Source: an uncultured Candidatus Saccharibacteria bacterium
GTDB lineage: Bacteria > Patescibacteriota > Minisyncoccia > Phycocordibacterales > PALSA-1337
Reading direction: 5' to 3'
Length of the DNA stretch: 34,094 nt
Assembly: GCA_964362725.1 (NCBI GenBank)
Contig: CAYIFO010000003.1
Span: 1-34,094 of the forward strand
This document shows positions 3,903 through 27,287 of this stretch, piece after piece. Both the position numbers and the translations under genes were made by a program. Each line of letters begins with the position of its first letter. The first letter of the stretch is position 1. The notes under the pieces are model-generated. The model made no database searches and had not been told where the DNA came from. It saw only the letters and a program-made list of their open reading frames with translations.

Positions 3903-5069
3903 ATGTCTTTCAAGATTTCTATTCATGAGGATATATCCATAGCTGATCTGATTAAAATTCACAATGAAAAAGGCGTGGTATTGAAAACACCGCATATTGG
4001 TAATATCTATCCAAATAATCTCGCAATAGCTTCTCTGGGCATACCGATGCTCTTTTATGATCGTACTCTTGGTACGAAAGATAATAATTTTCATCCAGAC
4101 AGTCTAATCGTAGGCGGAAAAGCAGAAGAAATAGCGGATCCGAGTATATTGACTACGCATTCAAAAATCACACGACTTCCAAGTTCTATATCGCGAGAAA
4201 CACAGATCGGGACAAGTCTAGTGGATTTCCACATGTCAGCATTAAAGCGGGCGTTGCCAAAGTCATTATGTTTTACATATACGGAGTATATTCAAGAGAA
4301 TAAAAATCAAGTCCTTCAAATTTTAGAAAAAATTACTGAACTTCATCCAAATTTATGGAGTAGGATCGTTGATGAAGAAGGGAAAACTTCTAAGTCTCAA
4401 GTAAATAACTGGAATGATGTATTGAAGTTGGGTGTTTTTGGTCTGACAAATATGAAGAGTGGTTGGCTTATACCGAATCCGGTAAGCGTCCTTTTCCATG
4501 GAACAATTGATGCCGCAAAAGCTAAGGTTAAGGATGTTTATCTTTTGTCTGGTCCGGACATGTATAAATATATTGATGGTTATCAGACGGAACTCAATGA
4601 GACATATGATTATGTGAGAAAGACATCAGGTTTAAATCTTCCGGAAACGATTCATTGTCACATTATTCCAGTCATAAGTATGAGATTTATCATTGAGGAG
4701 AAATATAGGAATGCGTTAGATGAATTGGTTAGTGCATACTTAAAACATAATTCAGCCGATGAATCGATTAGAACCTTGATGAAAAATGAAATTAGGGATT
4801 TTGATGCTAAGCAATTAATTCATGAGAAACATTCAATAAAAGATGAGATTCACACTTGCATCAGAAATAAATTTGAAGCTTTTAAAACGACTATGTTTTA
4901 CGATATAGAAGAAGCTAATTGTTTTACTCAATATGATTTACTTATCAGCAGTGGTTTATATATTCACCCGTGGGCAATCAATAGTAAGCTAACTGATGTT
5001 TCCAGAGCATACGGTTTTTTAGCTGGTTGTTACTCATATGTTAGAGATAGGCTACAGGATGAGGCGTAA
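3903..5069 (+). CDS. hypothetical protein (orphan A of the proS-coupled operon)
   Basis: 388-aa uninterrupted ORF starting 5 nt after the proS stop and ending 1 nt before the next start. No family recognised. 'TPHIGNIY' near the N-terminus and 'NMKSG' about 150 aa later are only faintly HIGH/KMSKS-like. Confidence 0.6.
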   Translation: MSFKISIHEDISIADLIKIHNEKGVVLKTPHIGNIYPNNLAIASLGIPMLFYDRTLGTKDNNFHPDSLIVGGKAEEIADPSILTTHSKITRLPSSISRETQIGTSLVDFHMSALKRALPKSLCFTYTEYIQENKNQVLQILEKITELHPNLWSRIVDEEGKTSKSQVNNWNDVLKLGVFGLTNMKSGWLIPNPVSVLFHGTIDAAKAKVKDVYLLSGPDMYKYIDGYQTELNETYDYVRKTSGLNLPETIHCHIIPVISMRFIIEEKYRNALDELVSAYLKHNSADESIRTLMKNEIRDFDAKQLIHEKHSIKDEIHTCIRNKFEAFKTTMFYDIEEANCFTQYDLLISSGLYIHPWAINSKLTDVSRAYGFLAGCYSYVRDRLQDEA

Positions 5070-5834
5070 TTGAACAAAAATATGTCGATGGAATATGATC
5101 CAATTTTATATGATTCTGACCCGAGACCATTTCTCAAGGATGAGGTGGCATTTTATGTGAAACTTGTTGAAAGATTCAGACCAAAAACAATACTCGAACT
5201 TGGCGTAGGTACGGGCAGAATATTCTCCAAACTTCTTCCGTTGGTTAAATCCGGCGTTGGAATTGATATATCAGAGACTATGCTGGATAGGTGTCGAAAA
5301 GTGTGTGCTGAAAATCATAACTATAAATTATACAAGTTAAGTTTCGTGGATTTTGATTTGCAGACGACGTTCGATCTTATCTATTTACCCTTTAATACTT
5401 TTCAGCATTTACTTACTGAAGGAGACCAGATGGCGTGTCTGAAAAATATCAGAAATCACATGCATGGCAAAAGCCATTTTATTCTGGACTTAATGAATGG
5501 CGATAATCTTTCTTTTGATCTTGAACAATGGAAGCAAGATTATTCAACCATATTACCATCTGGAGATATTTTACAACGAGACCAAAAGACGGTTGGTGTT
5601 GATAAGGTAACCTCGATTGTTCAAAAAAAATTTAGGTACACAGAGACTGTTAAAGGCGCAATGGATAAGGTACAAGAATTTGACGCCTTAATGAAAATAA
5701 ACCCCAATAAAAAGATACATGAAATTTTAGAGAAATTAGGTTTTGAGATAGAAGGCATTTGGTCTGATTATTTATTTGGCCATGACACAGATACTAAAAA
5801 GATGATTTATTGCTTAAAAACTCATGAAATTTAA
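5070..5834 (+). CDS. class I SAM-dependent methyltransferase
   Basis: 'ILELGVGTGR' is the glycine-rich SAM-binding motif I, followed by 'GIDISETM' (acidic motif II) and 'LIYLPFNTFQH'. The start is uncertain: TTG 5070, ATG 5082 or ATG 5088. Confidence 0.8.
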   Translation: MNKNMSMEYDPILYDSDPRPFLKDEVAFYVKLVERFRPKTILELGVGTGRIFSKLLPLVKSGVGIDISETMLDRCRKVCAENHNYKLYKLSFVDFDLQTTFDLIYLPFNTFQHLLTEGDQMACLKNIRNHMHGKSHFILDLMNGDNLSFDLEQWKQDYSTILPSGDILQRDQKTVGVDKVTSIVQKKFRYTETVKGAMDKVQEFDALMKINPNKKIHEILEKLGFEIEGIWSDYLFGHDTDTKKMIYCLKTHEI

Positions 5835-7128
5835 ACCGGTACCGATCAAGCTTGGGAAAGGGCACACGGTTACCTCCTTGTACCACAGTCCTTTCGATTT
5901 CAACCTGCTATATTTAATTTGCCTTGCCAAGACGGGACTCAAGTTAAAGATAGTCATAGACGACATTGATAATATCGGTATTGATAAGAGTAATTCGGAT
6001 TTGACATATCACTATGGTGAGAGATTTTTTATGAGTAAGACTGAAAGAACAAATGTAAGGCCATTATCTTTCGTCATGCCCAAGCATCTATTGGCGAATC
6101 TGTCATACCCAGCCCTCAAAGAACTTGATTCAAAGGTCGGTATAGCTACGATAAAACAACACTTCAAATATGAGGATACTGTTGAACATTGGATTAAGGA
6201 TGTCACTAATAGTCTCGGATCTTTTTCTCTTGTTGGACCTAATAGAGCCTTCGCTTTCTCTGTAATTGATGATAGCTTTATTCAATCTCTTAGACAGGCG
6301 AAATGTAATATCATCTCGATGTTGAGAAGATTTCCGGAGCAAAGTGACAGCGCGATTGATTTTATTGAATGGCTTCTGAATGAAGAATTTATGCAAGTCG
6401 GCATCAAGATTTCAGATTATTATGTCTCACTGTTACAAAGAATAGTCAGTAAGTTTGAGTTAGATGATAATATCGTTATCCAAAGAATGTCTGATTTGGA
6501 TATTCAGGGTAAGACGAGACAGCTTTTGGATATTTTCAATAATGATGAATCACTACGCGAAACGTATAAGAATGCTCTTGCGTACGAAGGAAGAAAGAGT
6601 CAGGATGATTTTCCATTCTATGCGATATCAAAAGCGAGCGGTGAACGATTATTACCAGTAGACAATTACATAAGCAATCCGACAGATTATTTGCTAGCTC
6701 CAAAAGTCCTAATGCTTAATAATTTTGAAAATCTTGTTTTGCCATTTCATGCCATAGAAAGTAAGAATGTTTGGGCTAGAGAAATAATGTATCAAAATAA
6801 GATGGTAAACTGCAATCAGATCTTTTGTGATGAAAAGTGGGTAAACAAGCTATCTTCATTCGGATTCAATATTAGACTTGATGATGAAGAGCAAAGAATT
6901 TATGGTGTAAATAGTCTGAATACATCTTATTTCAACGAACTTCTTGAAAATGGACAGAATATGTATGAAGACGGCCAAAACATTGAAGAAAAGTATAAGG
7001 GATGGATGATTACTTCGACTTTCAAGGCAATGGATAGGATGAAATACCCATTGATATTTATGGCACTACTTCAGGAAAAGACTTTTTTGACTGATATTCC
7101 AGAGTTTTATAAATTAATACCATGTTAA
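5824..7128 (+). CDS. hypothetical protein (orphan C of the proS-coupled operon)
   Basis: 434-aa ORF. Its ATG overlaps the methyltransferase 3' end by 11 nt, and its stop overlaps the next start (ATGTTAA). No motif recognised. Confidence 0.6.
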   Translation: MKFKPVPIKLGKGHTVTSLYHSPFDFNLLYLICLAKTGLKLKIVIDDIDNIGIDKSNSDLTYHYGERFFMSKTERTNVRPLSFVMPKHLLANLSYPALKELDSKVGIATIKQHFKYEDTVEHWIKDVTNSLGSFSLVGPNRAFAFSVIDDSFIQSLRQAKCNIISMLRRFPEQSDSAIDFIEWLLNEEFMQVGIKISDYYVSLLQRIVSKFELDDNIVIQRMSDLDIQGKTRQLLDIFNNDESLRETYKNALAYEGRKSQDDFPFYAISKASGERLLPVDNYISNPTDYLLAPKVLMLNNFENLVLPFHAIESKNVWAREIMYQNKMVNCNQIFCDEKWVNKLSSFGFNIRLDDEEQRIYGVNSLNTSYFNELLENGQNMYEDGQNIEEKYKGWMITSTFKAMDRMKYPLIFMALLQEKTFLTDIPEFYKLIPC

Positions 7129-8423
7129 ATCTTCTTGAAAAAACTGCCACGGCTTTAATCAGGAAATTTAGTCCTATGGTTATATGTGTTACTGGAAGTG
7201 TAGGTAAGACATCGACTAAAGAAGCGATAGCTTGCACACTATCAACCTCATTTAGAATTAGGAAGACATCGCGTAATTATAATAATGATTTTGGCGTGCC
7301 AATATCTGTGATCGGCGGTTTTGAATCCGAGGAAGGCTTTTTGTCATTGTGCACCATACTTGCTTATGGCTTGTGGCAGTTATATTTTGGAGCAAGATTT
7401 CCTGAAATTTTGATAATAGAAGTCGGTGCAGGTAAAGTGGGAGAAATTGAAAGGATTGCAAAATGGCTTAAGCCGAACATAGTCTTGGTAACTAATCTTC
7501 CTCATATTCCATCCCATCTTGGGGTTTTTGGCTCAAAAGAGATGCTGATTAAAGAAAAGAAATTTCTCATCAGTGCTATGGATAAAGACGGTGTACTTAT
7601 AATCGATAAAGATGAAGCTAATATCGAGCACTTTTATGGGGATTTTCCAGGTAAAATAATCTTTTGCAATGGAGATAAGTTTATCAAAGATGGTAATTAT
7701 GAAATCACATATAGGCATAAGGATAATTTTACTTTACCGATCGGTTTCAATATCGAAGTTCGTTTAGATAATCCTAATAAGAGGAGTATTACGTTCGCAG
7801 GCTTTTTGGGTATTCAAAATATGAAGGCTATTGATATGGCTATTTTGGTGGCCAAACATCTGAATTGTACTGCCGATAAGATTCAATTAGGATTACAGAA
7901 GTATAGACCGCAAAGTGGCCGCCTTAGAATAATTCCTGAACAGAATACTAGTATAATCGTACTGGATGATACATTTAACGCATCACCATATGCAGTCGAA
8001 AATTCAGTCAATACTCTAATATCCCTGAAGAAATCTGATGATCAAAGACGGATTGCAGTCCTAGGAGATATGCTAAATTTAGGAAAAGAGACAGAAAACA
8101 TCCACAGAGAGACTGCTATTGAGGTAATCCCCAAAGTGGATATTCTTATAACTGTGGGAAATGTATCGAAAGTGTGGCAAGAATTTAATGCGGACATTCA
8201 CCATCTAAACAAACATTTTAAAAATTCTCTAAACGCGGCACACTATATTGAGAATATCCAAAAAGAAGGAGATTTGATTCTTTTTAAAGGTGGACACCTG
8301 ACTCGTCTGGAAAAGGCTGTAGCTTTTCTTACAAAATGTCCATCGGATTATCTTGTTCGTCAAGAAACATATTACAATACGCATGAGTTAGATCTGAATC
8401 CAATATCAGCCGACCATGAATAA
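7122..8423 (+). CDS. Mur ligase family protein, MurF-like but lacking the N-terminal UDP-binding domain
   Basis: P-loop 'VTGSVGKTSTKE' sits at residues ~23-34. 'NYNNDFGVPIS' (MurF N-x-NN-x-IGVP signature), 'DDTFNASP' (MurF DDTYNANP) and 'IAVLGDMLNLG' are also present. In canonical MurF the P-loop follows an N-terminal domain of roughly 80-100 aa, which is absent here. Confidence 0.8.
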   Translation: MLNLLEKTATALIRKFSPMVICVTGSVGKTSTKEAIACTLSTSFRIRKTSRNYNNDFGVPISVIGGFESEEGFLSLCTILAYGLWQLYFGARFPEILIIEVGAGKVGEIERIAKWLKPNIVLVTNLPHIPSHLGVFGSKEMLIKEKKFLISAMDKDGVLIIDKDEANIEHFYGDFPGKIIFCNGDKFIKDGNYEITYRHKDNFTLPIGFNIEVRLDNPNKRSITFAGFLGIQNMKAIDMAILVAKHLNCTADKIQLGLQKYRPQSGRLRIIPEQNTSIIVLDDTFNASPYAVENSVNTLISLKKSDDQRRIAVLGDMLNLGKETENIHRETAIEVIPKVDILITVGNVSKVWQEFNADIHHLNKHFKNSLNAAHYIENIQKEGDLILFKGGHLTRLEKAVAFLTKCPSDYLVRQETYYNTHELDLNPISADHE

Positions 8424-9399
8424 AAATAAGTCAAAAATTACTCCCATTTTACGACAATTGGCCGACCTGTATGGTCGTGAATTTTGTGTAATGGATCACG
8501 ATCTGGATGCCGGATACATCGTAGGTCTTGACGGGATTAGGCACTATTTTTCTTATGGCACTCTAGATTTGAACAATAATGCGGCTACTGAATTTTCGGG
8601 TAGCAAGATTCTGTCTTCAGAAATCGTTTCGACGGCAGGTATCAGAGTTCCGAAAGAGGAAACAGTTAGCAATTCAAATAATGTAAAAGATGGTATTCGC
8701 ATTGCCTTGAAGACTGTCGGGGTGCCGGCGATAATCAAGCCTGTACATGGTGCGCAAGGCAAGAATGTCTTTAGAATAGATTCGATCGATGAGTTAGATC
8801 TGATTTTAGGTGATAATGATTTTGATGCTGATGACGTGATCGTTCAGGAATATATTGATGCTCCAACTGAAATCAGAGTCGTATTACTAGATGGTGAGAT
8901 TATTCAAGCCTATAAGAGAGATTATTCACATATTATCGGCGACGGAGTGACTACGATAAAGGGACTGATTGAAAAAAGAAACAAATCCTTTCAGGATAGG
9001 AAGCGAAATACTTGTATTGATTTAATTGATAGCCAGTTAACGGTAATTCTTAAACGACATAAATATGATCTAGGTTTCGTATTACCTAAGGATGAACGGC
9101 TCAATATATCTTACGGGCGTAATCTATCGCGTGGTGGGGAATATGAATTTATTCCTAACCGGCTTAGTTCGACAGTCGAGAAAGTCTCAAAAAAGATTGC
9201 AAATGTTTCTGCACTACGTCTTGTTGGGATTGATCTGTTTATTTTAGGTGATGTCGAATCAATAGACCGTGAGGATCAGATTGTATTCATTGAGTATAAT
9301 GCGTCACCTGACATGGAAAACAATTTTTATTACGATACTGACTATAGTGAGCAATTACTTGCTATCTACGAGAAGATATTTACTAAATTAATAAACTAG
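8416..9399 (+). CDS. ATP-grasp ligase, RimK/cyanophycin synthetase/GshF-like
   Basis: 'AIIKPVHGAQGKNVFRI' (ATP-grasp K-P-x-x-G-x-x-G), 'VIVQEYID..TEIRVVLLDGEII' and 'YSHIIGDGVTTIKGLIEKRN'. The last resembles the 'AHV(V/I)GDG..TI.ELI...N' block of CphA/GshF-type ATP-grasp domains. It does not look like Ddl (no S-S-x-G motif). The ATG overlaps the upstream stop (ATGAATAA). Confidence 0.8.
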   Translation: MNKNKSKITPILRQLADLYGREFCVMDHDLDAGYIVGLDGIRHYFSYGTLDLNNNAATEFSGSKILSSEIVSTAGIRVPKEETVSNSNNVKDGIRIALKTVGVPAIIKPVHGAQGKNVFRIDSIDELDLILGDNDFDADDVIVQEYIDAPTEIRVVLLDGEIIQAYKRDYSHIIGDGVTTIKGLIEKRNKSFQDRKRNTCIDLIDSQLTVILKRHKYDLGFVLPKDERLNISYGRNLSRGGEYEFIPNRLSSTVEKVSKKIANVSALRLVGIDLFILGDVESIDREDQIVFIEYNASPDMENNFYYDTDYSEQLLAIYEKIFTKLIN

Positions 9400-12342: not shown

Positions 12343-12458
12343 CGATGTAACTACTTGATGAAGCTCTACAGAGTAACCTATATGAATCATTACCCTGAGC
12401 CGGAGATAAATGCTAAACTTAGCTAGAAATTCGTCAATCAAAAGATAAGGAGGATGTG

Positions 12459-13085
12459 ATGCCGTGGATCAAAGCACTACGTCCTATTTGTGGGACGTCT
12501 ACAGCTCTTTTAGTAATTTCCGGCTTTCGGCATGCCAATCAGCCAATCGACTGGATTGTTGTGGCTACTGTGTTTTTTATCACCAGCATGGCAATGATCT
12601 GGAATGACTACCATGATCGAGAAATCGATGTTGCGAAAGGCAGGTTCTTGGCCAGTAAACAACCGGCTATATTCCTTTGCTACGCACTTGGGCTTGCGAC
12701 GGTGAGCCTTGCTCTCTCGCTATGGGTCTTATTTCAGAACGTCATGTTCGGATCGCTTTGTTTAGGGATGTGGGTAGCATCCATGCTCTACAACAAAGCC
12801 CAAAGCAATCCGTTTGCTAAAAACGTGATTGTTAGTCTGAACGTAGCGGCCACGGTTACATTCCCATTGTTCTTGGATACCAAGATTACAAGATTATGGT
12901 TTATGGCAGCCTACGTGTTCGTGGTCATAAGTATCCGGGAGTATATCAAGGATGTTGAAGACATGGAGGTAGACCGAGACAGAAAGTTGACCCTAGCACT
13001 GGTGTTGGACAGCCGGATCAGCGATCGATCGGCAACCTATATCCGCCACTTGATGAGCCTGTTACTAGTGGCGTTGATGGTCTAG
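12459..13085 (+). CDS. UbiA-family prenyltransferase-like membrane protein (short)
   Basis: First Asp-rich motif 'NDYHDREIDVAKGR' (N-D-x-x-D-x-x-x-D) and second 'KDVEDMEVDRDRK', with hydrophobic helices between them. AAGGAGG at 12447-12453 lies 5 nt before ATG 12459. At ~208 aa it is shorter than typical UbiA enzymes. Confidence 0.7.
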   Translation: MPWIKALRPICGTSTALLVISGFRHANQPIDWIVVATVFFITSMAMIWNDYHDREIDVAKGRFLASKQPAIFLCYALGLATVSLALSLWVLFQNVMFGSLCLGMWVASMLYNKAQSNPFAKNVIVSLNVAATVTFPLFLDTKITRLWFMAAYVFVVISIREYIKDVEDMEVDRDRKLTLALVLDSRISDRSATYIRHLMSLLLVALMV

Positions 13086-13088
13086 TCG

Positions 13089-13129
13089 GGACTGGAAAGA
13101 AACCTCGCGTTTCTAGTCAGTCCTTTTTT
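13089..13129 (+). terminator. rho-independent terminator
   Basis: GGACTG-gaa-AGAAAC-ctcgc-GTTTCT-agt-CAGTCC (two stacked perfect 6-bp stems) followed by TTTTTT, 4 nt after the UbiA-like stop codon. Confidence 0.75.
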
Positions 13130-13228
13130 AGCTTGTTTTGGTGGATACGAAAATGCTTCGACTAAGCCAGGGCATTCGCGTAGCTACAGAGTTATATTAT
13201 GGCTGGTAAAAAGTACAAAAAAATACGA

Positions 13229-13256
13229 TTGGCAAACCGACACTTTTTGCTATAAT
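13229..13256 (+). promoter_or_regulatory. sigma70-type promoter with extended -10
   Basis: TTGGCA (13229-13234), a 16-nt spacer ending in TGc, then TATAAT (13251-13256). It lies upstream of a 42-codon ORF and the PL14-like gene. Confidence 0.45.
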
Positions 13257-13426
13257 CCAAATATGCAAAAAATACACTTTTCAATTTATGTCAGATCCGG
13301 ATGGAGATGTAACAGAAATCAAACTTATTGATCCGGCTGATTACAGGAAATATTTTGATTGGGGTGAGGTGGGAGAGAGGATTATGGAGAGGGCTATGGA
13401 ACTGAAAAAATTTTGACACAAAAATA

Positions 13427-14185
13427 ATGGATAAAAAGATTACATTCACATCGCAACCTTTGGGATTATATACGAAGGATCAGATAAATCAGGATTGGAA
13501 TAATCCCCCAAGAATCATGGGCGCTGATAGTGGTAGGTGTAACATCGTCGAAGACCCATTAGACAAATCGCGACATGTATTTGAAATCAAATATCCAAAA
13601 GGAAAAATTGGCCAAGAAGAACATGGTGGGGGCGCACAATGGAGGTTTAAATTTGATAAATCATATTTGAAGTGTACGATTGAGTATCAGGTTATGTTTC
13701 CGGCTGGTTTTGATTTTGTTAAAGGAGGAAAATTGCCAGGTTTATGTGGAGGTACTTCACCGGCTGGAGGCAAGAAGTCGGATGGATCAGATGGTTTTTC
13801 AGCCAGAATTATGTGGCGGGAGAGAGGTGAGATATTTCAATATATGTACTGGATGGAGAGAGCTCAAGAGAAGAATTGGGGCGATGATTTTCCTTGGAAG
13901 GATCTTGAGTCAAAAGAACAAAAGTCTTTCGGGTTTATTCCAGGTCAGTGGCATACGCTTAAAACTGAAATTACCATGAATGCGCCAGGCGAAAGAGATG
14001 GTCAGATCATATCCTGGTTAGATGGTAAACTTGCTCTTGATCAAAAGGGAGCATTTAGAGCAAAAGGAGCTACTTTTGGGATTGATTCATTCAACTTCAC
14101 GACTTTCTTTGGCGGCAATATGCCAGATTGGGCACCGACAAAAGATGAGGTGGCGTATTTTGCGGATTTTGTTATTAAGGGGTAG
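13427..14185 (+). CDS. polysaccharide lyase family 14-like protein
   Basis: 'FVKGGKLPGLCGG....GGKKSDGSDGFSARIMWRERGEIFQYMYW' resembles the 'GGKLPGL.GG ... FS.R.MWR..G..Y.Y' core that I recall for PL14 / Polysacc_lyase domains. There is no N-terminal signal peptide or TM segment. Confidence 0.55.
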   Translation: MDKKITFTSQPLGLYTKDQINQDWNNPPRIMGADSGRCNIVEDPLDKSRHVFEIKYPKGKIGQEEHGGGAQWRFKFDKSYLKCTIEYQVMFPAGFDFVKGGKLPGLCGGTSPAGGKKSDGSDGFSARIMWRERGEIFQYMYWMERAQEKNWGDDFPWKDLESKEQKSFGFIPGQWHTLKTEITMNAPGERDGQIISWLDGKLALDQKGAFRAKGATFGIDSFNFTTFFGGNMPDWAPTKDEVAYFADFVIKG

Positions 14186-14298
14186 TATATTTTCAATAAG
14201 TCCAAGTTGATCGTTACGAAAAAATTTCTTACAGGTTTGCCTAGCGCAGTTGTACTTGAAGGGATGGGAACAATAAGATCATAAAAAAACGTTTTTAC

Positions 14299-14694
14299 AT
14301 GATTCACATTAAGTACAAATTGGATCGATCATCGAAACATGGCATCGGTCTATTTGCAGATGAAAATATAAGGAAAGGAACACTTGTTTATACTTCTAGC
14401 CCTGCGCTTGATGTAAATATTACTCAGGAGCAATTTGATGTATTAGAGGAAAAAGAGAAGCAAGAAATTCGCTGGTGGGGATTTTTTGATAAGCAGGCTC
14501 ATAAATGGCATGTTGATTTTGATGTATCACATTTTATAAATCATTCAGAAGAAGGGACGGTGACACAGGATACCAAGTACAAAGATGCATATCTTATAAC
14601 AACAAGGGATATAGAAAAAGGTGAGGAGTTGACGCAAAATTATCTAGAATTTGAGAGTAAAGATGATCTCAAGGCAAGAGGGATTAATATCTAA
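14299..14694 (+). CDS. minimal SET-domain protein (putative lysine methyltransferase)
   Basis: 131 aa. 'KHGIGLFADENIRKGTLVY' (SET N-terminal G-x-G), 'HFINHSEEG' (N-H-S pseudoknot motif) and 'RDIEKGEELTQNY' (G-E-E-L-x-x-x-Y). No post-SET Cys cluster. Confidence 0.8.
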   Translation: MIHIKYKLDRSSKHGIGLFADENIRKGTLVYTSSPALDVNITQEQFDVLEEKEKQEIRWWGFFDKQAHKWHVDFDVSHFINHSEEGTVTQDTKYKDAYLITTRDIEKGEELTQNYLEFESKDDLKARGINI

Positions 14695-14743
14695 ATGTTC
14701 ATTTCAAGTGGAAACTGTGATGGATATATGTTTTTAACAAAAT

Positions 14744-15304
14744 ATGATAAACATCGATTGGTCAGAATACTATAAAGGAACAGTCGGGAATCCACCTCAT
14801 CCGTTGCTTGTAAAAGCTCTTACTTATATGCAAAGCAGAGACAAGGCAATAGATATTGGTGCTGGCGCCCTTAATGAAACGAGATATCTGCTCGAACAAG
14901 GTTTTGATGTTACTACTGTCGATCAGAGTTCGCTTGTGGAACAAGAAGTTAAGCGTACGGGATCTCCAAAGCTGCACGCATTTACTGTTTCGTTTGAAGA
15001 CTTCGATTTTCCCAAAGACACCTATGACCTTGCGATGGCAATGTTCGCTTTGCCATTTATGGAGGATCATTTTAGTGATGTATTTGCGAAGATAAAGTTA
15101 TCGCTCAAAAAAGGTGGTGTTTTCTGCGGTCAATTTTTCGGCAATCGAGATCAGAGGAAAAACAACACAAACAGGACCTTTCATACCAAGGAGCAAGTAA
15201 TGGAACTTCTGGACGATCTTGCGGTATTGTCATTTGAGGAGGAAGAAAGATTGAAGGGAAATATGAACGCACATATATTTCATGTTATAGCGAGGAGGAA
15301 ATAG
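14744..15304 (+). CDS. class I SAM-dependent methyltransferase
   Basis: 'AIDIGAGALNETRYLLEQGFDVTTVDQS' gives motif I plus the acidic motif II residue, followed by 'YDLAMAMFALPF' and 'LKKGGVF'. 186 aa, a small-molecule MT-like size. Confidence 0.8.
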   Translation: MINIDWSEYYKGTVGNPPHPLLVKALTYMQSRDKAIDIGAGALNETRYLLEQGFDVTTVDQSSLVEQEVKRTGSPKLHAFTVSFEDFDFPKDTYDLAMAMFALPFMEDHFSDVFAKIKLSLKKGGVFCGQFFGNRDQRKNNTNRTFHTKEQVMELLDDLAVLSFEEEERLKGNMNAHIFHVIARRK

Positions 15305-15317
15305 CCGGCATAATCTT

Positions 15318-16028
15318 ATGAGAATAGCTACTTATCTAAACACGACACCAGATGAAGTTCAAAAGAAAAGCCACAATATATGGCTAGGTATAAGTCTTGG
15401 AAATAAATATTTTACAAAAGAGAATATCGCAGAATATATAAAATGGGCTATGAATAATACTAAAAACGAAGTCTTGGTCGTAATAGCTGACGCTTTACAT
15501 GCTGTTAATTTGGAAGTGTTAGATAAACGAAGTCCTGAACATGCGTTAAGAAAAGCGATGAAGATTGGTGATGATAAAGATAGGGAGATCCGAGAAATTA
15601 TCGCTACCCTGCAACCAAATGATCGAAATAAAGTTCGTTTAGTAAGATGGGATGATGTGACTCAAAATGAGATCTATAAATATAATCTGAAGGCGATAAA
15701 AGATGAATTTGTTAGTGATAAAGAATTCCACGATTTCATGACAAATATTGTAGTCGATGGAAGAAATGATCGGACAGCGAGCATTTCCAAAATGTCCCGA
15801 GAAGAATTAGACAGATTGTCAGACTATGTACTTTATGAATTACCACTTTTCGTGAATGGGGTACATATCCAGGGTAGTGATCTGGTTTATACACTATTGC
15901 CATATCCGGGTTTGAATAAATTGGATGATCTAAGCATTGGCCTTTCAAACAGGACTATGTTTCCACATTTAGCTGAAAAATTGCATTTATCAAATCACAT
16001 AGGCATCGTCGAGGCGTACACTGACTAA
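15318..16028 (+). CDS. tRNA-dependent cyclodipeptide synthase (CDPS)
   Basis: 236 aa. 'HNIWLGISLGNKYFTKENI..YIKWA' resembles the AlbC-type 'ALIGISAGNSYFS..N...LL.WA' block holding the catalytic Ser. 'YVLYELPLF' resembles the 'YVLAEAPLF' Tyr-x3-Glu block. 'LLPYPG' gives a Y-P pair (XYP-subfamily-like). Alignment is from memory. Confidence 0.72.
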   Translation: MRIATYLNTTPDEVQKKSHNIWLGISLGNKYFTKENIAEYIKWAMNNTKNEVLVVIADALHAVNLEVLDKRSPEHALRKAMKIGDDKDREIREIIATLQPNDRNKVRLVRWDDVTQNEIYKYNLKAIKDEFVSDKEFHDFMTNIVVDGRNDRTASISKMSREELDRLSDYVLYELPLFVNGVHIQGSDLVYTLLPYPGLNKLDDLSIGLSNRTMFPHLAEKLHLSNHIGIVEAYTD

Positions 16029-16382
16029 ATATGGTAATCAAGGCTTAAATCCATGCGGAAGTAGTGGAATTAAAAAGTTACCGGTGGCTTTGAACTCGGC
16101 TCTTGAAATTCTTTGCTAAGATTCCATTTTATCTACGATTGTCCACAAATAATCTGCTACAATACGACCATGAGTCCCGTTAACCTCCGCCAAAGAGCCC
16201 TAGAAATACTCAAAAACACTCACCTCACTTTGGTCTCCAACTCGAAGGCAATGCTGTGCGCTTGGAAGGTGTAAGATTTGATCTTATTATCAAACATTGG
16301 ACCAAGAGAAGTCATCGGGTGGTTATTCTTCCTGATGCATCCTGACAAAGAAGCTCCATGAGACTAATAAAATTATTAAAAT

Positions 16383-16901
16383 ATGAACCAAAATTTGGAA
16401 ATAAAGAAATCAAAAATTGCCGGAAAAGGCGTTTTCTCAAAAAATAAAATCAACCAAGGTCAAACTATCTGTTTTCTTACTGGAGAATTATGTTCCTTGG
16501 AAGAAGTCTTAAAGAGAGTTGATGAGGGTCGAGAAGAACCGTCGGATCCTCTCGGGGTCGATGATGAAAAATATTTGGACTTGGATGAAATATCTAGAAC
16601 TTTTAACCATTCATGCGAACCCAACTCTTATATAAGAGGCCAGAATGAATTGGTGGCGATTCGGAACATAAGTGGCGGGGAAGAGATAACATATGATTAT
16701 TCAACGACCATGAATGATAACGAGGAGAAGATTATCAAAGCCGGCCGAAATCTTTGGACATGCAAGTGTTATTGCGGAAGTGATAAATGTCGAGGAAAAA
16801 TTGATCAGTTCAAAACTTTACCAAAAAATGTTCAGTCATATTATATTGATAATAAATTGATGCCCAATTTTATGCTAAAAGTTTTTGCATCAACTGATTA
16901 G
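16383..16901 (+). CDS. SET-domain methyltransferase with post-SET Cys cluster
   Basis: 'IAGKGVFSKNKINQGQTI', 'FNHSCEPNSY', 'ISGGEEITYDY' and post-SET 'CKCYCGSDKCRG'. This is a canonical SET plus post-SET architecture in 172 aa. Confidence 0.85.
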   Translation: MNQNLEIKKSKIAGKGVFSKNKINQGQTICFLTGELCSLEEVLKRVDEGREEPSDPLGVDDEKYLDLDEISRTFNHSCEPNSYIRGQNELVAIRNISGGEEITYDYSTTMNDNEEKIIKAGRNLWTCKCYCGSDKCRGKIDQFKTLPKNVQSYYIDNKLMPNFMLKVFASTD

Positions 16902-16922
16902 ATAATAAGATATCTTACTGCA

Positions 16923-17627
16923 ATGTCTTCCACCTCTTTTCTCATCACAAAAGAACTACAATCTCTAGCCAGCCCCACCAAAGCCAAACTCCTACAAGGC
17001 TTTTTTAAGACTGGCAAAGGTCAGTATGGGGAAGGTGATAAATTCTTAGGCGTTATGGTGCCTGTGCAGAGGAATATTGCCAAGAAATTATTGGATATTG
17101 ATTTGTCAGAAGTTGGCAAGCTCTTGAGAAGTCCTTACCATGAATGCCGATTTACGGCTTTGCAAATTCTGGTCATGAAATACAAAAAAGGCGCCGAAAA
17201 AGAAAAGAAAGCGATCGTCACCTTCTATATCAAAAACCGGCAGGCAATAAACAATTGGGACTTGGTTGATACTTCTGTGCCTTATATTCTGGGTGACTGG
17301 TTGTTAAATGAAGACAGGGCTGTACTTTATAAACTGGCCGGTTCAAAAAATCTGTGGGACAGGCGCATTGCCATAATTTCAACTTTTGCCTTCATTAAGG
17401 CAGGTCAATTTGAAGATTCTATTAAAATAGCTGAACTATTACTGACTGACAGACATGATCTTATCCACAAAGCCGTTGGTTGGATGCTCCGCGAGATCGG
17501 CAAAAAATCTCATCAAACACTCGAACAATTTTTGAACCAACACGCGACGCGAATGCCGAGAACAATGCTTCGATATGCCATAGAAAAAATGAGCGTTGAG
17601 AAAAAAATAAAATACATGGACAAGTAA
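16923..17627 (+). CDS. DNA alkylation repair protein (AlkD/AlkC-like HEAT-repeat glycosylase family)
   Basis: 'KAKLLQGFFKTGKGQYGEGDKFLGV', 'NNWDLVD', 'WDRRIAIISTF' and 'HDLIHKAVGWMLREIGK' are the recurring blocks of the DNA_alkylation family. It starts 21 nt after the second SET gene. Confidence 0.85.
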   Translation: MSSTSFLITKELQSLASPTKAKLLQGFFKTGKGQYGEGDKFLGVMVPVQRNIAKKLLDIDLSEVGKLLRSPYHECRFTALQILVMKYKKGAEKEKKAIVTFYIKNRQAINNWDLVDTSVPYILGDWLLNEDRAVLYKLAGSKNLWDRRIAIISTFAFIKAGQFEDSIKIAELLLTDRHDLIHKAVGWMLREIGKKSHQTLEQFLNQHATRMPRTMLRYAIEKMSVEKKIKYMDK

Positions 17628-17767
17628 CCTTGCCGAGTTATGCACATTTTTTGCAATTTGGCATTGTAATATTTTTTCAATGCCTCATAATGATAGAGTC
17701 AATGTAATAATTTTTGTCGAAGAATTATTATAAACATACTATCTCCGTAATTTTCTCTCCACTCCAA

Positions 17768-17839
17768 ATGAAAAAGAAGAAGCGTGTTACCAAGAGAAAG
17801 ACCACCAAAAAGCGCAAGACTACCAAGCGCCGCCGTTAA
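17768..17839 (+). CDS. possible 23-aa ultra-basic peptide
   Basis: ATG...TAA encodes MKKKKRVTKRKTTKKRKTTKRRR (17 of 23 residues are K/R). The stop lies 2-3 nt before a very strong terminator. No Shine-Dalgarno sequence is seen, and the ORF is too short for the ORF track. Confidence 0.3.
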   Translation: MKKKKRVTKRKTTKKRKTTKRRR

Positions 17840-17840
17840 G

Positions 17841-17868
17841 AAAAAAACTCCCCGTCAGGGGAGTTTTT
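17841..17868. terminator. bidirectional rho-independent terminator
   Basis: AAAAAAA-CTCCCC-gtca-GGGGAG-TTTTT: a perfect GC-rich stem flanked by an A-run and a T-run. It sits between the convergent small ORF/AlkD-like unit (+) and the peptidase gene (-). Confidence 0.85.
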
Positions 17869-17891
17869 GATCCTATAATCAACAGGACACT

Positions 17892-20117
17892 CTATCTAAT
17901 CCTGATCGAGACTGCGTTTGAATAAGCCGACTCTTTTCCGGTCTGACTGTTCACGGCCTTGACCCGATAATAGTATGTGCCGCTTGTTAAGGACTCGGAA
18001 TACTTCGTGACGTTGCTTCCGACGGTACCGACGACTAGGTAGGAAGGCACGGCATTTCTGCCTTTGGCCGCCAAAGCCCGTTCGATAACGAATCCGGTTT
18101 CATTGTTTGAATTGTCAGTCCAGAGGAGTGTGGCGGTATTTTGCAGGGCGCTGACGCTGATCGATGCCGGTGGGTTGATAATATTGGGGTCGGTGACAGT
18201 TATAAGCACGCTGGCGCTGACCTTGGCGCCGGAATTATCGGTAACAGTCAGAGTGGTCGTGAAATTGCCCGCCTGGGAGTATGTGTGCAGAGCGATCGGT
18301 TCTGAAGAAGTTGTTCCATCCCCGAAATCCCAGAAATAGGCCACAATAGTACCATCTACATCCTTTGAATCGGTACCGATCAGGGCCGTGGAAAAAGGAA
18401 CCGTTCCGCTCGTGGAAGTGGCGATTATAATAGCGGTCGGTGCTACATTACCCGATCCAAAATCATAATCGATATAGGCATAATCTTGGGCCGCGTCGAT
18501 AGTCTTTGGAACGATGTTATAGGAGAGAATTTTGTTTTTTGCCAGATCGATGAGGTTGAAAGATTGAAGAGTTGTTGGGCTCAAAGCGGTCGAATCATAG
18601 GTGTTGAGAAAATAGCGTCGCGGGCCGCTCACACCTGATACCAGATCAGTGAAATCAAGATAGAATGTGCCGCTCCTCTCCACTGTTCCACCATCATAGG
18701 CATAGGCGCCACCGGCTCTGGCCAGGACTCTATTGGTGCTCCAGATGGTCGTCGGTGTCATTGAATCGGTTGTCGATAGGCCGAGACTCATAACCAATTC
18801 GTTGCGTTTGAGGTTCTTGACGGTAAATTCGGCCAGAACCTGCGGTGTATAGTTAGTCAAAGGGGTGATCCAGACCGCTTCGTCATACCAGAATATGCCT
18901 TCACCGGTATAAGAGGGATTGCGCGTACGCAGGGCTTGATAAGCGATCCATGCAAAACCGCTTTCATTCCAGGTCGAGCCCCAGGAATTGGCTATGCGCA
19001 AAGCACCTTTTTCGTTTGAATCAACCAAACCGTTTAGATTGAGATCGACCCAGATATTATCGTCATAGCCGACGATAGTCATGGCATGTGCGCCAGCTGT
19101 GCCACTGACCGAAGTAACAATTCTCTTTCCAACAAAAGAGTCGTCCGCGGCGTTTTGCAGATCATTGCCGATTGTTTTCCAAACCCAGGAATTTATATAG
19201 GTGGCATAGTTGAGGACATAGCCGTTTACCAAGAGTTGTTTAACTTGAGTCAGACCGGTTTCGGTATCGACATCCAGCACTTTACCGACTTTATCAACCT
19301 GCATATTGATGGCTGATTTCCAGACTTCGGAATCAAGGCTCCAGGCGCGATAGTTTCCGTCATAGGGGAATTGAGCCCAGGTCGCCAAACCGTGTTTTTG
19401 GGCTATGGCAAAAGCCTCGAAATATGTGCTACCGACATTTGCCCCTCCGTTGACCATGTTGTAGGTCCATTTTGGAGAAAAGCGAAACATGTCGCCTCCG
19501 TTTTTGGCATCCAAATCGCGAGCCATCGCGTTCATATGAGTAAAGGTATAGTAGACGCCCGCAAACTGGGCGCAAGAGTTCAAGGAGCCCTGACTGCGGA
19601 TAGGAGGAAAATATTTGAGCGTGCTGTTATCGACGCCGAAAACCTCCGCGGTTACCAGTATTTCGGCCGTCTGGCCGGTGACATCGGCTATTGGCCCGGC
19701 GCCGACCGCACCTTCCACTTCCTGGCCTTGCGGTGCTATCTCAATGTCTCTTTCATTGAGAACCTGCTTGCCATGCTTGACTCGCTCGGCGTTGACGCGA
19801 TCAAAACCAAGTTTGTTCAGTTTGACTTTTTTTGTTTTAAGGACGTTTTTTTCAATCCAGTCAGTTTGTTCGCTATTGGGTCTGGTCGCGCCGGTCCCAA
19901 GTAGTTCGTCACCGATTCTTTCCAAGGATGTTTCACTGGAAGTAAAAGAACCGTCTATTGTTGCCGCCAGATTGTCAGAAATCGCAAGAGGGGCGGGGAT
20001 TTGCGTAACCACAGGACTTGACCGGGTCCGGTTCAAGGCGACAATGTAATATTCTGAAACTAGGAGACTGATCATAATGATCAGCATCAGTCCAACGATT
20101 TTAATGTTTTTCATCAT
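17892..20117 (-). CDS. secreted/anchored papain-like (C1 family) cysteine peptidase with PKD and fibronectin type III domains
   Basis: N-terminal hydrophobic segment 'IVGLMLIIMISLLV'. Catalytic blocks 'RSQGSLNSCAQFAG' (Q...C), 'GAHAMTIVGYDDN' (His) and 'ANSWGSTWNESGFAWIAY' (N-S-W). PKD signature 'FWDFGDGTTS...TLTVTDNSG'. C-terminal Fn3-like 'LLWTDNSNNETGFVIER...YYYRVKAVN'. Confidence 0.85.
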   Translation of the reverse strand: MMKNIKIVGLMLIIMISLLVSEYYIVALNRTRSSPVVTQIPAPLAISDNLAATIDGSFTSSETSLERIGDELLGTGATRPNSEQTDWIEKNVLKTKKVKLNKLGFDRVNAERVKHGKQVLNERDIEIAPQGQEVEGAVGAGPIADVTGQTAEILVTAEVFGVDNSTLKYFPPIRSQGSLNSCAQFAGVYYTFTHMNAMARDLDAKNGGDMFRFSPKWTYNMVNGGANVGSTYFEAFAIAQKHGLATWAQFPYDGNYRAWSLDSEVWKSAINMQVDKVGKVLDVDTETGLTQVKQLLVNGYVLNYATYINSWVWKTIGNDLQNAADDSFVGKRIVTSVSGTAGAHAMTIVGYDDNIWVDLNLNGLVDSNEKGALRIANSWGSTWNESGFAWIAYQALRTRNPSYTGEGIFWYDEAVWITPLTNYTPQVLAEFTVKNLKRNELVMSLGLSTTDSMTPTTIWSTNRVLARAGGAYAYDGGTVERSGTFYLDFTDLVSGVSGPRRYFLNTYDSTALSPTTLQSFNLIDLAKNKILSYNIVPKTIDAAQDYAYIDYDFGSGNVAPTAIIIATSTSGTVPFSTALIGTDSKDVDGTIVAYFWDFGDGTTSSEPIALHTYSQAGNFTTTLTVTDNSGAKVSASVLITVTDPNIINPPASISVSALQNTATLLWTDNSNNETGFVIERALAAKGRNAVPSYLVVGTVGSNVTKYSESLTSGTYYYRVKAVNSQTGKESAYSNAVSIRIR

Positions 20118-25125: not shown

Positions 25126-26256
25126 ATGAAAAAAATTATTTGGTGGATTGTGGGGATTGTGGTCATAGTCCTTATCGTTCTGGCTTTGACCAACAAAAAG
25201 CCTTCTGAAACGGGATCGATTAAGATTGGGTGGATATCTGATTTATCTGGACCTCAAGCTAAATATGGAGCGTTTGAAGCTGGAACATTAGCAATGGAGG
25301 AGATTAATAAAAATGGTGGAATTAACGGCAGACCCCTAAAGATAATTTTTGAGGATGGAAAATGCAATGGAACTGCTGCTGTAAATGCAATGCAAAAACT
25401 AGTAAATATAGATAAAGTAAACGTGGTTCTGGGTGGTCATTGTTCGCCAGAAAGTTTGGCGATTGCCCCGATTGCAGAAAAGAATCATGTAATAATGCTT
25501 GCTTCAATCACTACTAGTCCCGGGTTAACAAAGGCCGGAGATTACATATTTCGAACATCGCCCATTTCGACAGTCCAATCGGGCATACTAGCCAAATACA
25601 TGACAGAAAAACTCGGACTTAAGAACGTTGGGATTATCTACGAACAGACTGATTACGCGAGACCAATAGCCGAAGGGTTGAAACAAAGTTTTGAAACTAA
25701 CGGCGGACAGGTTATAGCGTCCGAAGCATACAATCCCGGTTCTAACGATTTTCGAACAATTATTTTAAAGATCAAGGCATTAAAACCTGATGCTGTATTT
25801 GTCTCACCGCAAAGTCCTGATGCCGGAATGAATATCCTTAAGCAGATAAATGAATTAGGTCTCAATACAAAAATATTTGGCAATGATGTCTTGGCTAACA
25901 TGATTAATATTCAAAAAGAACCAAATCTTTTTGAGGGTTTGATTCTCGCTCAACCCGATTTTGACGAGAGCGCCAATTTACTAACAAAGAAATTCGTTGA
26001 TGCGTATAGTATACGATTTAATACAACGGCAATACCGTACGGAGTATGGACCGCCGAGTCATATGATGCCGTCTATATCATTTCCAAGGCAATTGAACAA
26101 GAGGGTGATAGTGCTGACGGAATAAGAGATTATCTTAAAAATTTGAAAGATTATAGTGGTGCTTCTGGTCTGATAAATTTCGATTCTAATGGCGATGGGA
26201 TTAGAAATTATGCGCTCCGCTTGATTACTGGAGGGAAAATAATAAAACTTCAATAA
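25126..26256 (+). CDS. ABC transporter substrate-binding protein, branched-chain amino acid (LivJ/K-like) type, paralog 1
   Basis: N-terminal TM anchor with no lipobox Cys, then 'IKIGWISDLSGPQAKYG', 'INKNGGINGRPL' and 'AGDYIFRTSP'. These are typical Peripla_BP_6 blocks. Confidence 0.85.
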   Translation: MKKIIWWIVGIVVIVLIVLALTNKKPSETGSIKIGWISDLSGPQAKYGAFEAGTLAMEEINKNGGINGRPLKIIFEDGKCNGTAAVNAMQKLVNIDKVNVVLGGHCSPESLAIAPIAEKNHVIMLASITTSPGLTKAGDYIFRTSPISTVQSGILAKYMTEKLGLKNVGIIYEQTDYARPIAEGLKQSFETNGGQVIASEAYNPGSNDFRTIILKIKALKPDAVFVSPQSPDAGMNILKQINELGLNTKIFGNDVLANMINIQKEPNLFEGLILAQPDFDESANLLTKKFVDAYSIRFNTTAIPYGVWTAESYDAVYIISKAIEQEGDSADGIRDYLKNLKDYSGASGLINFDSNGDGIRNYALRLITGGKIIKLQ

Positions 26257-26269
26257 GTACTTCACGACA

Positions 26270-26295
26270 AAAACCGCTCCTCACCAGACGGTTTT
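26270..26295 (+). terminator. weak intercistronic hairpin / partial terminator
   Basis: AAAACCG, a 12-nt loop, CGGTTTT, then T, lying between the binding-protein gene and livH. There are only three G:C pairs, so at best this is an attenuating structure. Confidence 0.3.
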
Positions 26296-26321
26296 TGTTG
26301 TATAGTAAAGGAGAAAGTTTT

Positions 26322-27188
26322 ATGGAAATCCTCCCCCAATTGATAGTCAACTCGATCATCGCCGGAGCGATCTACGCGATGGTGGCTTTGGGTTTCAACC
26401 TCATTTACGGCACCGCCAAATTTTTTGACCTGGGTTACGTGGCCTTGGCGGCCGTGGGCGGTTATGCCGTTTTTTATTTTTACAAAAACCTGGGTTTGGA
26501 CCTTTATCTTTCGATAATTCTGGGGATTGCCATTGCCGGAGCTATCGGCTTTCTTATTTACCGCCTGGTCTACTCGCCACTCCGAGCCAGGAAATCATCG
26601 GGTATGGTCCTTCTGGTGGCCGCTTTGGGAGTAATGACCGCTCTCCAGGCTATTGTCGCTATCCTTTTCACCAGTCAATTCCAGACTTTGTCCAGAAATG
26701 CCGGTTATGAACGGGTCTTCAATGTTTTGGGAGGCGTTATTACCCAGACCCAGGTCATCATCTTGATTTTGGGAATAGTGATAATGATCGGCATCGCTCT
26801 GGTCTTCCGCTATACTCTTTTCGGCAAGGCTATCAAAGCCATAGGCGATGATGAAGAGGTTTCGAAAATAGTCGGCATCAATACCGGATGGATCATCGGC
26901 TGGGTGTTTTTCATCGGTTCAGCCATTGCCGGCTTGGCCGGTATCTTGGTCGGTTTTGACACGGGCATAGAGCCGACCATGGGTCTGTCCCTGCTTTTGA
27001 AGGGAGTGATCGCCTCTATTATCGGCGGTATAGGTAATGTTTACGGCGGTGTCCTGGGAGGCTTTCTTCTGGGCTTTATCGAAAACTTCGGCATCTGGAA
27101 AATTTCGGGAGAGTGGAAGGATGCCATAGCTTTTGGAGTTCTGATTATTTTCCTATTGTTCAGGCCGAAAGGGATTTTGAGAAGGTGA
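26322..27188 (+). CDS. livH: branched-chain amino acid ABC transporter permease
   Basis: 'LIVNSIIAGAIYAMVALGFNLIYG' is the LivH N-terminal signature, and the protein is multi-pass hydrophobic. AAGGAG at 26308-26313 precedes ATG 26322; the track start at 26295 is less likely. Confidence 0.9.
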   Translation: MEILPQLIVNSIIAGAIYAMVALGFNLIYGTAKFFDLGYVALAAVGGYAVFYFYKNLGLDLYLSIILGIAIAGAIGFLIYRLVYSPLRARKSSGMVLLVAALGVMTALQAIVAILFTSQFQTLSRNAGYERVFNVLGGVITQTQVIILILGIVIMIGIALVFRYTLFGKAIKAIGDDEEVSKIVGINTGWIIGWVFFIGSAIAGLAGILVGFDTGIEPTMGLSLLLKGVIASIIGGIGNVYGGVLGGFLLGFIENFGIWKISGEWKDAIAFGVLIIFLLFRPKGILRR

Positions 27189-27189
27189 G

Positions 27190-27272: not shown

Positions 27273-27287
27273 TTGAGGTTATATAAT
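27260..27287 (+). promoter_or_regulatory. consensus sigma70 promoter for the AAA ATPase gene
   Basis: TTGACA (27260-27265, inside repeat unit 4), 16 nt, TATAAT (27282-27287), 40 nt upstream of ATG 27328. Confidence 0.6.

Follow-up and report, generated by a model that had tools for sequence, protein, structure and literature searches.

Within a 34,094-nucleotide (nt) stretch of contig CAYIFO010000003.1 from an uncultured Candidatus Saccharibacteria bacterium (assembly GCA_964362725.1; hereafter, the window), a predicted cyclodipeptide synthase (CDPS) gene was found together with genes for a class I S-adenosylmethionine (SAM)-dependent methyltransferase (MT) and two SET-domain proteins, here termed SET1 and SET2. 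Comparison with CDPS loci from other genomes and metagenomes revealed a family-wide coupling between CDPSs and SET enzymes in bacteria of the candidate phyla radiation (CPR) and in DPANN archaea, which is real and appears to be undescribed. All four open reading frames (ORFs) of the window locus, spanning 14299-16901 on the + strand, were confirmed as follows, with spacings of 49 nt between SET1 and MT and 13 nt between MT and CDPS:

14299-14694, + strand: SET1, a minimal SET protein of 131 amino acids (PF00856, E 2e-13)
14744-15304, + strand: MT, a class I SAM-dependent methyltransferase of 186 amino acids (Methyltransf_11/25/23)
15318-16028, + strand: predicted tRNA-dependent CDPS of 236 amino acids, XYP subfamily, ParcuCDPS-like clade (PF16715, 80.4 bits; TIGR04539, 98.8 bits)
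16029-16382: non-coding gap between CDPS and SET2, 354 nt, unusually long against an otherwise compact contig
16383-16901, + strand: SET2, a SET plus post-SET protein of 172 amino acids (PF00856, E 7.7e-14)

SET enzymes recur beside cyclodipeptide synthases

We compiled 126 CDPS loci from genomes and metagenomes, which collapsed into 100 clusters at 95% identity (window included) and provided 824 kb of CDPS flanks, and identified SET neighbours through an iterative SET search on all six-frame ORFs. ORFs were called with table 11 only, such that Gracilibacteria loci may be mis-split, and the taxonomic labels of metagenome-assembled genomes (MAGs) may include mis-binned contigs. Excluding the window, 14 of the 99 non-redundant loci have a SET gene as the immediate neighbour of the CDPS; these 14 derive from MAGs labelled Patescibacteria, Saccharibacteria and Woesearchaeota (CPR and DPANN). 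In 13 of them the SET gene is co-strand with the CDPS, and in all of these but L017, with its SET gene 76 nt upstream, it overlaps the CDPS stop codon or lies no more than 3 nt from it. The two genes of L090 are divergent. SET was also the commonest family in a Pfam scan of 117 direct CDPS neighbours (14 occurrences), followed by GNAT (12-13), with all others occurring at most three times. Overall, SET genes account for 14 of 178 adjacent genes compared to 1 of 834 others (window excluded; Fisher p = 2e-10, a value that overstates significance given the phylogenetic non-independence of the loci).

Twelve of the 14 adjacent SETs belong to a group that we call SET-C, defined by at least ~45% identity to cassette SETs, the lack of an insert after beta-4, and a position abutting, overlapping or fused to the CDPS. 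These proteins are ~150 amino acids long, combine SET and post-SET regions, and are at most 40% identical to the SET2 family. The remaining two are SET1-like, with at most 50% identity to the SET1 family, and four distinct SET lineages occur beside CDPSs. Identity values between pairs of CDPSs correlate with those between their SET-C partners (r = 0.80). Furthermore, an exhaustive HMMER search for CDPSs (146 representatives at E <=1e-30, with long matches scanned against Pfam) uncovered three CDPS-SET fusions of 374-389 amino acids (P0317, P0319 and P0362), each with a SET-C-type C-terminal half and with three different junctions between them; P0362 corresponds to MEX0287766.1, encoded on a 39.8-kb contig of a 'Flavobacteriaceae' MAG. 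The SET-C profile matches BurB, the SET-domain methyltransferase that acts on the sulfur of free methionine in the dimethylsulfoniopropionate (DMSP)/malleicyprol pathway (PMC12542666; PDB 9L4T, 9L4V), at E 6.4e-8, but KMT2 and ASH1L rank higher. Taken together, a functional link between CDPS and SET-C is supported by neighbourhood, correlated-divergence and Rosetta-stone evidence. The tie between the CDPS locus and SET enzymes proposed in the initial annotation thus stands at the level of the family, where adjacency, correlated divergence and fusions agree, and runs through subfamilies other than those of the window's own SETs.

Also identified was an alternative partner in the position of SET-C, a small GNAT acetyltransferase (~145 amino acids) that directly adjoins the CDPS in 14 loci (L007, L018, L023, L028, L030, L033, L062-L064, L076, L078, L082, L089 and L118), often with overlapping start and stop codons. 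A weakly GNAT-like family of ~200 amino acids occupies the same place in four further loci (L027, L029, L092 and L093). The GNAT partners are closest to RimI, below threshold. SET and GNAT loci are mutually exclusive, and on the CDPS tree SET, GNAT, GNAT-like and no-partner loci are interleaved, with sister CDPSs carrying different partners. Fic-type protein modifiers are direct CDPS neighbours in two loci.

Several observations accompany this survey. P0420 is a phosphoribosyltransferase-CDPS fusion. In L110 (4051-7900) the CDPS is flanked by the genes of both phenylalanyl-tRNA synthetase subunits, which might point to a Phe-tRNA substrate in that lineage. Viral carriage of the CDPS-SET cassette was considered and rejected, with no CDPS or SET-C relatives present in IMG/VR. 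A role in anti-phage defence or as a toxin-antitoxin system was likewise rejected: PADLOC gave no match for the CDPS, SETs or GNAT, and one Fic neighbour matched SoFic.

The window cyclodipeptide synthase and its predicted product

The CDPS had initially been recognised from the peptides LGISLGNKYF, YVLYELPLF and LLPYPG. All three are present in the ORF and, in alignments with solved CDPSs, coincide with the catalytic Ser, the Tyr-x3-Glu block and the Tyr-Pro pair; profile searches bear out this assignment. The ORF at 15318-16028 is significant in both PF16715 and TIGR04539, clearly exceeding the curated cut-offs of 27 and 45 bits, respectively, and all of the catalytic residues, Ser, Tyr and Glu included, line up. 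Residues S26 (in GISLGN), N29, D58, Y170, E174, Y196 and P197 are invariant across 34 homologues, and the window residues align to S26, D58, Y167, E171 and Y191-P192 of ParcuCDPS, with which the window CDPS shares 26% identity in pairwise comparison (E 7e-27). A profile of the 34 homologues matches the ParcuCDPS crystal structures (7QB8, 7QAY and mutants) over their full length at E 1e-48, and AlbC at E 4e-11. Membership of the XYP subfamily is defined by the Tyr-Pro pair (AlbC Y202, with Pro at 203; the AlbC equivalents of the other catalytic residues are S37 and Y178/E182), and Y196-P197 make the window CDPS XYP-type. Together, these results show that the window encodes what is predicted to be an intact tRNA-dependent CDPS of the XYP subfamily, in a clade with ParcuCDPS, and the full-length match to 7QB8 and 7QAY suggests that it adopts the class Ic aminoacyl-tRNA synthetase-like Rossmann fold of CDPSs.

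ParcuCDPS produces cHP and cHE, i.e. cyclo(His-Pro) and cyclo(His-Glu) (PMC5816076), and mutants of its S26, D58, Y167 and E171 have been assayed, with loss of activity reported for the D58 mutants (PMC7613923). Its P1 pocket reads His via Y55, E174 and Y189, and paired Y55V, E174L and Y189L substitutions redirect it to Leu or Phe (PMC7613923). At these positions the window CDPS naturally carries V55, L177 and L194. Since the three His-recognising residues are thus V, L and L, the first residue of the window CDPS product is probably hydrophobic (Leu, Phe or Met-like) and not His. From the published pocket positions, P1 reads W-G-V-A-(W)-L-F-L and P2, less reliably given an ambiguous alignment to ParcuCDPS, I-D-G-D-G-N-K; according to the authors of the pocket code, P2 specificity is not readable from sequence. 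Two ideas were rejected on the basis of these pockets. SETD3-like methylation of a His-containing cyclodipeptide does not agree with P1, as the residues matching the ParcuCDPS Y55/E174/Y189 triad are V/L/L in the window CDPS and hydrophobic in all CDPSs linked to a SET, and the type of partner (SET, GNAT or none) could not be predicted from P1 or P2 motifs, which gave no clean separation.

Locus organization and its turnover among close relatives

Beyond the four genes, the following features flank the locus, with only 21 nt between SET2 and the AlkD-like gene:

13229-13256, + strand: sigma-70-like promoter match, the region's best (TTGGCA-16-TATAAT with TG extension, 11/12 positions; consensus match only)
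13427-14185, + strand: polysaccharide lyase family 14 protein (PL14), preceding SET1, 252 amino acids (PF21294, E 6e-48)
16923-17627, + strand: AlkD-like DNA-alkylation repair glycosylase, 234 amino acids (PF08713, E 2e-65)

Lying upstream of PL14, the promoter match could drive PL14-SET1-MT-CDPS, and no terminator-like site was seen on the + strand in 13000-18000. Within the gap separating CDPS from SET2 we identified a weak promoter-like site (16262-16290; 9/12 consensus positions) and no ORF of 60 amino acids or more; the gap resembles none of the retrieved loci and neighbour proteins, at either DNA or protein level. The idea that this gap or another intergenic region holds the remains of a SET-C or GNAT gene was rejected, as nothing rose above noise.

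According to the initial annotation, an order of genes conserved in no relative would point to chance adjacency. The SET-MT-CDPS-SET order recurs only in L137, a near-identical strain (97-100% identical, partial; PL14 100%, SET1 97%, MT 100%), and is unconserved beyond strain level, being absent from the following three relatives:

L001, CDPS 82% identical in amino acids: CDPS and AlkD kept (79% and 69% nt identity) with a META-domain gene and a 348-amino-acid ORF between them; no MT and no SET
L048, CDPS 79% identical in amino acids: PL14 (83% nt) and the MT-CDPS pair (79% nt) kept; an S51/PepE-like peptidase in the SET1 position
L010, CDPS 74% identical in amino acids: SET absent downstream

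The slots on either side of the CDPS thus change their content between close relatives, that of SET1 being occupied in L048 by the S51 peptidase. PL14 is syntenic with the CDPS block, lying upstream in L137 and L048 and directly downstream of the CDPS in L012, and AlkD homologues occur two to three genes downstream of the CDPS in L001 (65% amino acid identity) and L025 (53%). Both L137 and L048 originate from Hainich H43 aquifer assemblies, and the genomes of the closest CDPS relative (82%) and of a 74% SET2 relative are named Candidatus Paceibacterota (phylum Minisyncoccota in the NCBI taxonomy); the window accordingly looks like a groundwater CPR contig of Paceibacterota affiliation. Peptidases of family S51 (PepE/cyanophycinase-like dipeptidases) were also observed within four genes of the CDPS in seven loci: L048 (2004-2729), L015, L030, L037, L064, L095 and L106.

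The close adjoining of MT and CDPS, as first described, holds in L048 as well as in the window. The best PDB relatives of the MT are uncharacterised methyltransferases (3E23 and 2KW5), PADLOC matched it generically to the Mad2 MT domain, and L008 encodes a 48% homologue at a distance of 3.8 kb from its CDPS. In this clade, class I MTs seldom adjoin the CDPS directly; three CDPS-class I MT fusion proteins were also found (P0394, P0410 and P0419; 435-440 amino acids). Located 13 nt upstream of the CDPS, the MT is the likeliest candidate for a co-transcribed tailoring enzyme at the locus.

SET1 and SET2 belong to abundant stand-alone families

SET1 is, as first annotated, a minimal SET-domain protein; it lacks a post-SET region. 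Its motifs HGIG, INHS (NHS) and GEELTQNY (ELTQNY) are conserved in 26 homologues. An AlphaFold2 (AF2) model built from too shallow an alignment reached a pLDDT of only 66, and its significant Foldseek matches are all SET domains (TM 0.40-0.51). The description of SET2 as a canonical SET plus post-SET protein was also upheld, with the core motifs GKG (GxG), NHSCEPN and EEITYDY and the post-SET Cys cluster CKCYCGSDKC (CxCxCx4C) all present. Its AF2 model (pLDDT 89.6) retrieves the SET domains of MLL1 and ASH1L as top Foldseek matches (E 1e-11, TM 0.62-0.68); BurB is matched by fold at E 1.4e-9 (TM 0.59-0.62) and by sequence at E 2.4e-4, ranking below KMT2 and ASH1L.

The suggestion that SET proteins are uncommon in bacteria proved wrong for this lineage. 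The SET1 family comprises at least 607 homologous clusters at 90% identity, mostly from CPR and DPANN (68-78% identical among the matches listed), and the SET2 family at least 213 such clusters, likewise mostly from CPR bacteria and DPANN archaea, of which the 120 listed are 55-76% identical. Neither protein groups with SET-C. SET2 is 28-32% identical to SET-C, too low for membership, carries an extra insert, EEVLKRVDEGREEPSDPLG, after beta-4, lies 354 nt from the CDPS and has stand-alone homologues; SET1 has another architecture. These comparisons show SET1 and SET2 to be, by all sequence indications, members of two abundant stand-alone CPR/DPANN SET families rather than of a subfamily dedicated to CDPSs. 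The further proposal, a host-interaction island directed at eukaryotes, found no support: both SETs lack an N-terminal extension that could hold a signal peptide, and the relatives are CPR and DPANN members of groundwater and sediment.

Two features of the SET2 family stand apart from the CDPS. Members are ~73% identical between Paceibacterota and Woesearchaeota, with a Pacearchaeota member at ~69% (P0078, P0098, P0100 and others), and such identity implies an apparently recent transfer between domains. In L128 (5001-6486), a Tag-type 3-methyladenine glycosylase lies two genes downstream of a 74% SET2 homologue. With AlkD 21 nt away in the window and Tag in L128, the SET2 family may be linked to alkylation repair.

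Possible roles of the SET partners

The explanation that we favour as a whole, to which we assign slightly less than an even chance, is that a SET (or GNAT) partner tailors the CDPS product or an intermediate, and that the window SETs have been recruited likewise. The CDPS would take two aminoacyl-tRNAs, condense them and release a cyclodipeptide, and the partner SET, or alternatively GNAT, would act in cis on the small-molecule product or on the enzyme-bound aminoacyl or dipeptidyl intermediate, with SET methylating, or GNAT acetylating, a nucleophilic N or S. That methyl- and acetyltransferring enzymes serve as alternatives suggests that both would target one kind of nucleophile, which could be an amine or, as with the substrate of BurB, a thioether; the precedent of BurB also makes SET action on a small molecule conceivable. 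As the weakest step, SET1 and SET2 would probably show the same affinity, having been recruited from paralogous families. Taken by itself, a functional role of the window SETs in the CDPS pathway stands at roughly even odds. It is favoured by the low background density of SET genes together with the recruitment of SETs, in four lineages, by this CDPS clade: with one SET per 834 background genes, the presence of two within the four genes closest to a CDPS has an estimated expectation of ~1e-5, or 3e-4 at the upper confidence bound. A more far-reaching version, which we consider rather unlikely, holds that the CDPS-SET modules of CPR and DPANN constitute a new type of diketopiperazine pathway, in which SET methylates a small molecule or CDPS-bound intermediate, GNAT is the alternative for the same nucleophile, and SET1 and SET2 are independently recruited paralogues performing the same job. 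In its boldest form the nucleophile would be a Lys side chain, which would make these the first CDPSs to incorporate Lys: a 2022 review names Lys and Asp as the sole two proteinogenic residues still missing from CDPS products (PMC11610984).

A number of findings weigh against tailoring by the window SETs, and many of them also speak for a coincidence, in which the CDPS, perhaps with the MT, would be the sole biosynthetic unit, SET1 and SET2 would be ordinary mobile protein-lysine methyltransferases in variable slots, and SET2 would work, or merely be co-transcribed, with AlkD. The bracket is unconserved and both slots vary, with L001 lacking MT and SET altogether and having the META-domain gene and 348-amino-acid ORF in place of SET2, and with the S51 peptidase replacing SET1 in L048. 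By tblastn, no CDPS accompanies the 77% homologues of SET1 (0 of 2 contexts; loci L133-L136 and L140) or the 73-76% homologues of SET2 (0 of 4). As SET1 and SET2 are 73-77% identical to these stand-alone homologues, and all six contexts are without a CDPS, there is no sign of specialisation towards CDPSs; nor does any of the 99 other CDPS loci have a main-family SET1 or SET2 neighbour. Both families are abundant and, at 73% identity between bacteria and archaea, appear horizontally mobile. Between SET2 and the CDPS lie 354 nt with a promoter-like site, and between SET2 and AlkD only 21 nt; a Tag glycosylase is found near a SET2 homologue in L128. Set against coincidence are the very low expectation for two SETs so close to one CDPS and the independent strong affinity of the CDPS clade for SET partners, fusions included, and we regard it as possible, if somewhat doubtful. 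Further points tell against the tailoring explanation more generally. All SETs encountered here resemble the KMT2/MLL and ASH1L histone-lysine methyltransferases more than BurB; a hydrophobic P1 pocket presents no evident N nucleophile, and P2 specificity is unreadable from sequence; and the MTs of the CDPS-class I MT fusions were rejected as orthologues of the window MT, the ~23% identity amounting to generic Rossmann-MT similarity.

The kinship of these SETs with histone-lysine methyltransferases, whose canonical lysine-MT motifs they keep, also raises the possibility that the SET and GNAT partners are protein modifiers, which would methylate or acetylate a lysine or the N-terminus, either of the CDPS or of some component involved in aminoacyl-tRNA handling, and thereby regulate or insulate the withdrawal of charged tRNAs from translation. 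This would be in keeping with the sub-threshold proximity of the GNATs to RimI, a protein N-terminal acetyltransferase, with the fusions and with the overlap or abutment at the CDPS stop codon, which fit action in cis on the CDPS, and with the Fic-type modifiers that adjoin the CDPS in two loci. In known CDPS clusters, however, fused or adjacent enzymes are tailoring enzymes, MT and P450 fusions having been noted (PMC5816076), and the exchange of SET for GNAT-like partners between sister CDPSs is a pattern of tailoring diversification. S51 dipeptidases also recur nearby, no target lysine was identified, and no PADLOC or toxin-antitoxin signature was found. Modification of a protein is on this evidence unlikely, and tailoring of the CDPS product or an intermediate remains the explanation that we favour.

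Genomic setting of the window

Nearly all genes of the window run in the same direction, GC content is ~0.38-0.40 around the locus, and neither tRNAs nor Rfam non-coding RNAs were found in the window. Upstream of PL14, a UbiA-family ORF (12456-13085) of only 209 amino acids, whose best matches, below threshold, are archaeal GGGP-type prenyltransferases, may be truncated. Between this ORF and PL14, a 111-nt segment (13284-13394) shares 84% identity with the 3' end of an L001 NUDIX gene (2981-3091) and looks like a rearrangement scar or gene remnant.

Further upstream, positions 3903-9399 hold a tightly overlapping + strand operon encoding a 388-amino-acid protein without family assignment, a class I MT, a 434-amino-acid protein likewise unassigned, a MurF-like ligase and an ATP-grasp ligase, preceded by an alanine racemase gene (1278-2408). 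The best NCBIfam match of this MT, below cut-off, is a methyltransferase of daptide-type ribosomally synthesised and post-translationally modified peptides, and the ATP-grasp ligase is closest to the G domain of cyanophycin synthetase. Downstream of AlkD, a 741-amino-acid papain-like (C1) peptidase with a PKD domain (17892-20117) is the sole long gene on the - strand in 2.5-34 kb, and its GC content of ~0.50 against ~0.38 nearby suggests that it was possibly acquired. In a Liv-type ABC transporter region (25126-33859) with four Peripla_BP_6 paralogues, the two permease genes are set apart by an AAA_14/DUF4143 ATPase gene (27328-28470; GC 0.37) that appears inserted.

Comparison with known systems

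CDPSs of the CPR (ParcuCDPS) and clusters combining a CDPS with a class I MT are already known, and it is the CDPS-SET pairing that appears undescribed. A 2022 review lists as CDPS tailoring families P450s, 2-oxoglutarate dioxygenases, flavin oxidases, alpha/beta-hydrolases, prenyltransferases, class I MTs, cyclases and ligases, with neither SET nor GNAT acetyltransferases among them (PMC11610984), and an older comparative study mentions no more than a GNAT-fold ligase adjoining the CDPS of a Rickettsiella (PMC2922099). The initial annotation knew of no described CDPS locus with a SET gene, and our full-text literature searches agree, having returned only an unrelated fungal chromatin paper; searches for SET proteins in Patescibacteria and for CDPSs with the candidate phyla radiation found nothing. 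CDPS pathways provide compact, engineerable access to bioactive diketopiperazines. If the tailoring explanation is true, a recurrent and sometimes fused SET partner would represent a new enzyme class for the CDPS tailoring toolbox and, as far as we have found, the second SET-domain enzyme outside protein methylation after BurB. It would also offer a first functional handle on the abundant SET proteins of CPR and DPANN, and on the question why symbionts that are ultra-small and poor in biosynthesis use up charged tRNAs to make cyclodipeptides.

Among characterised enzymes, ParcuCDPS (CDPS 90 of Parcubacteria bacterium RAAC4_OD1_1; PDB 7QB8) resembles the window CDPS in its XYP type, its CPR-centred clade, its S26/D58 dyad, and its Tyr/Glu and Tyr-Pro pairs. 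The two differ in overall sequence (26% identity) and in the P1 pocket, where Y55/E174/Y189 of ParcuCDPS bind His, leading to cHP and cHE, and the window CDPS has V/L/L; moreover, no partner gene has been reported for ParcuCDPS. An adjacent, co-directional MT is shared with known clusters of a CDPS and a class I SAM-dependent MT, such as that of Actinosynnema mirum with its UbiE-type MT and those with the drimentine N-methyltransferases (PMC2922099, PMC11610984, PMC7358741), although these are actinobacterial and of the NYH type, and the window MT is a short TehB/Methyltransf_11-type protein with no characterised close relative. SET1, at ~130 amino acids and without a post-SET region, is comparable to minimal SET lysine methyltransferases such as vSET (3KMA) and Schizosaccharomyces pombe Set7 (5H6Z), and its low-confidence model matches only such SET domains; unlike these, it belongs to a large CPR-specific family. 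Finally, BurB is a bacterial SET enzyme of ~160-180 amino acids that methylates a free amino acid as part of a natural-product pathway, matching SET2 by fold and the SET-C profile by sequence, but it has no association with a CDPS, and both the window SETs and SET-C are nearer to KMT2/MLL and ASH1L.

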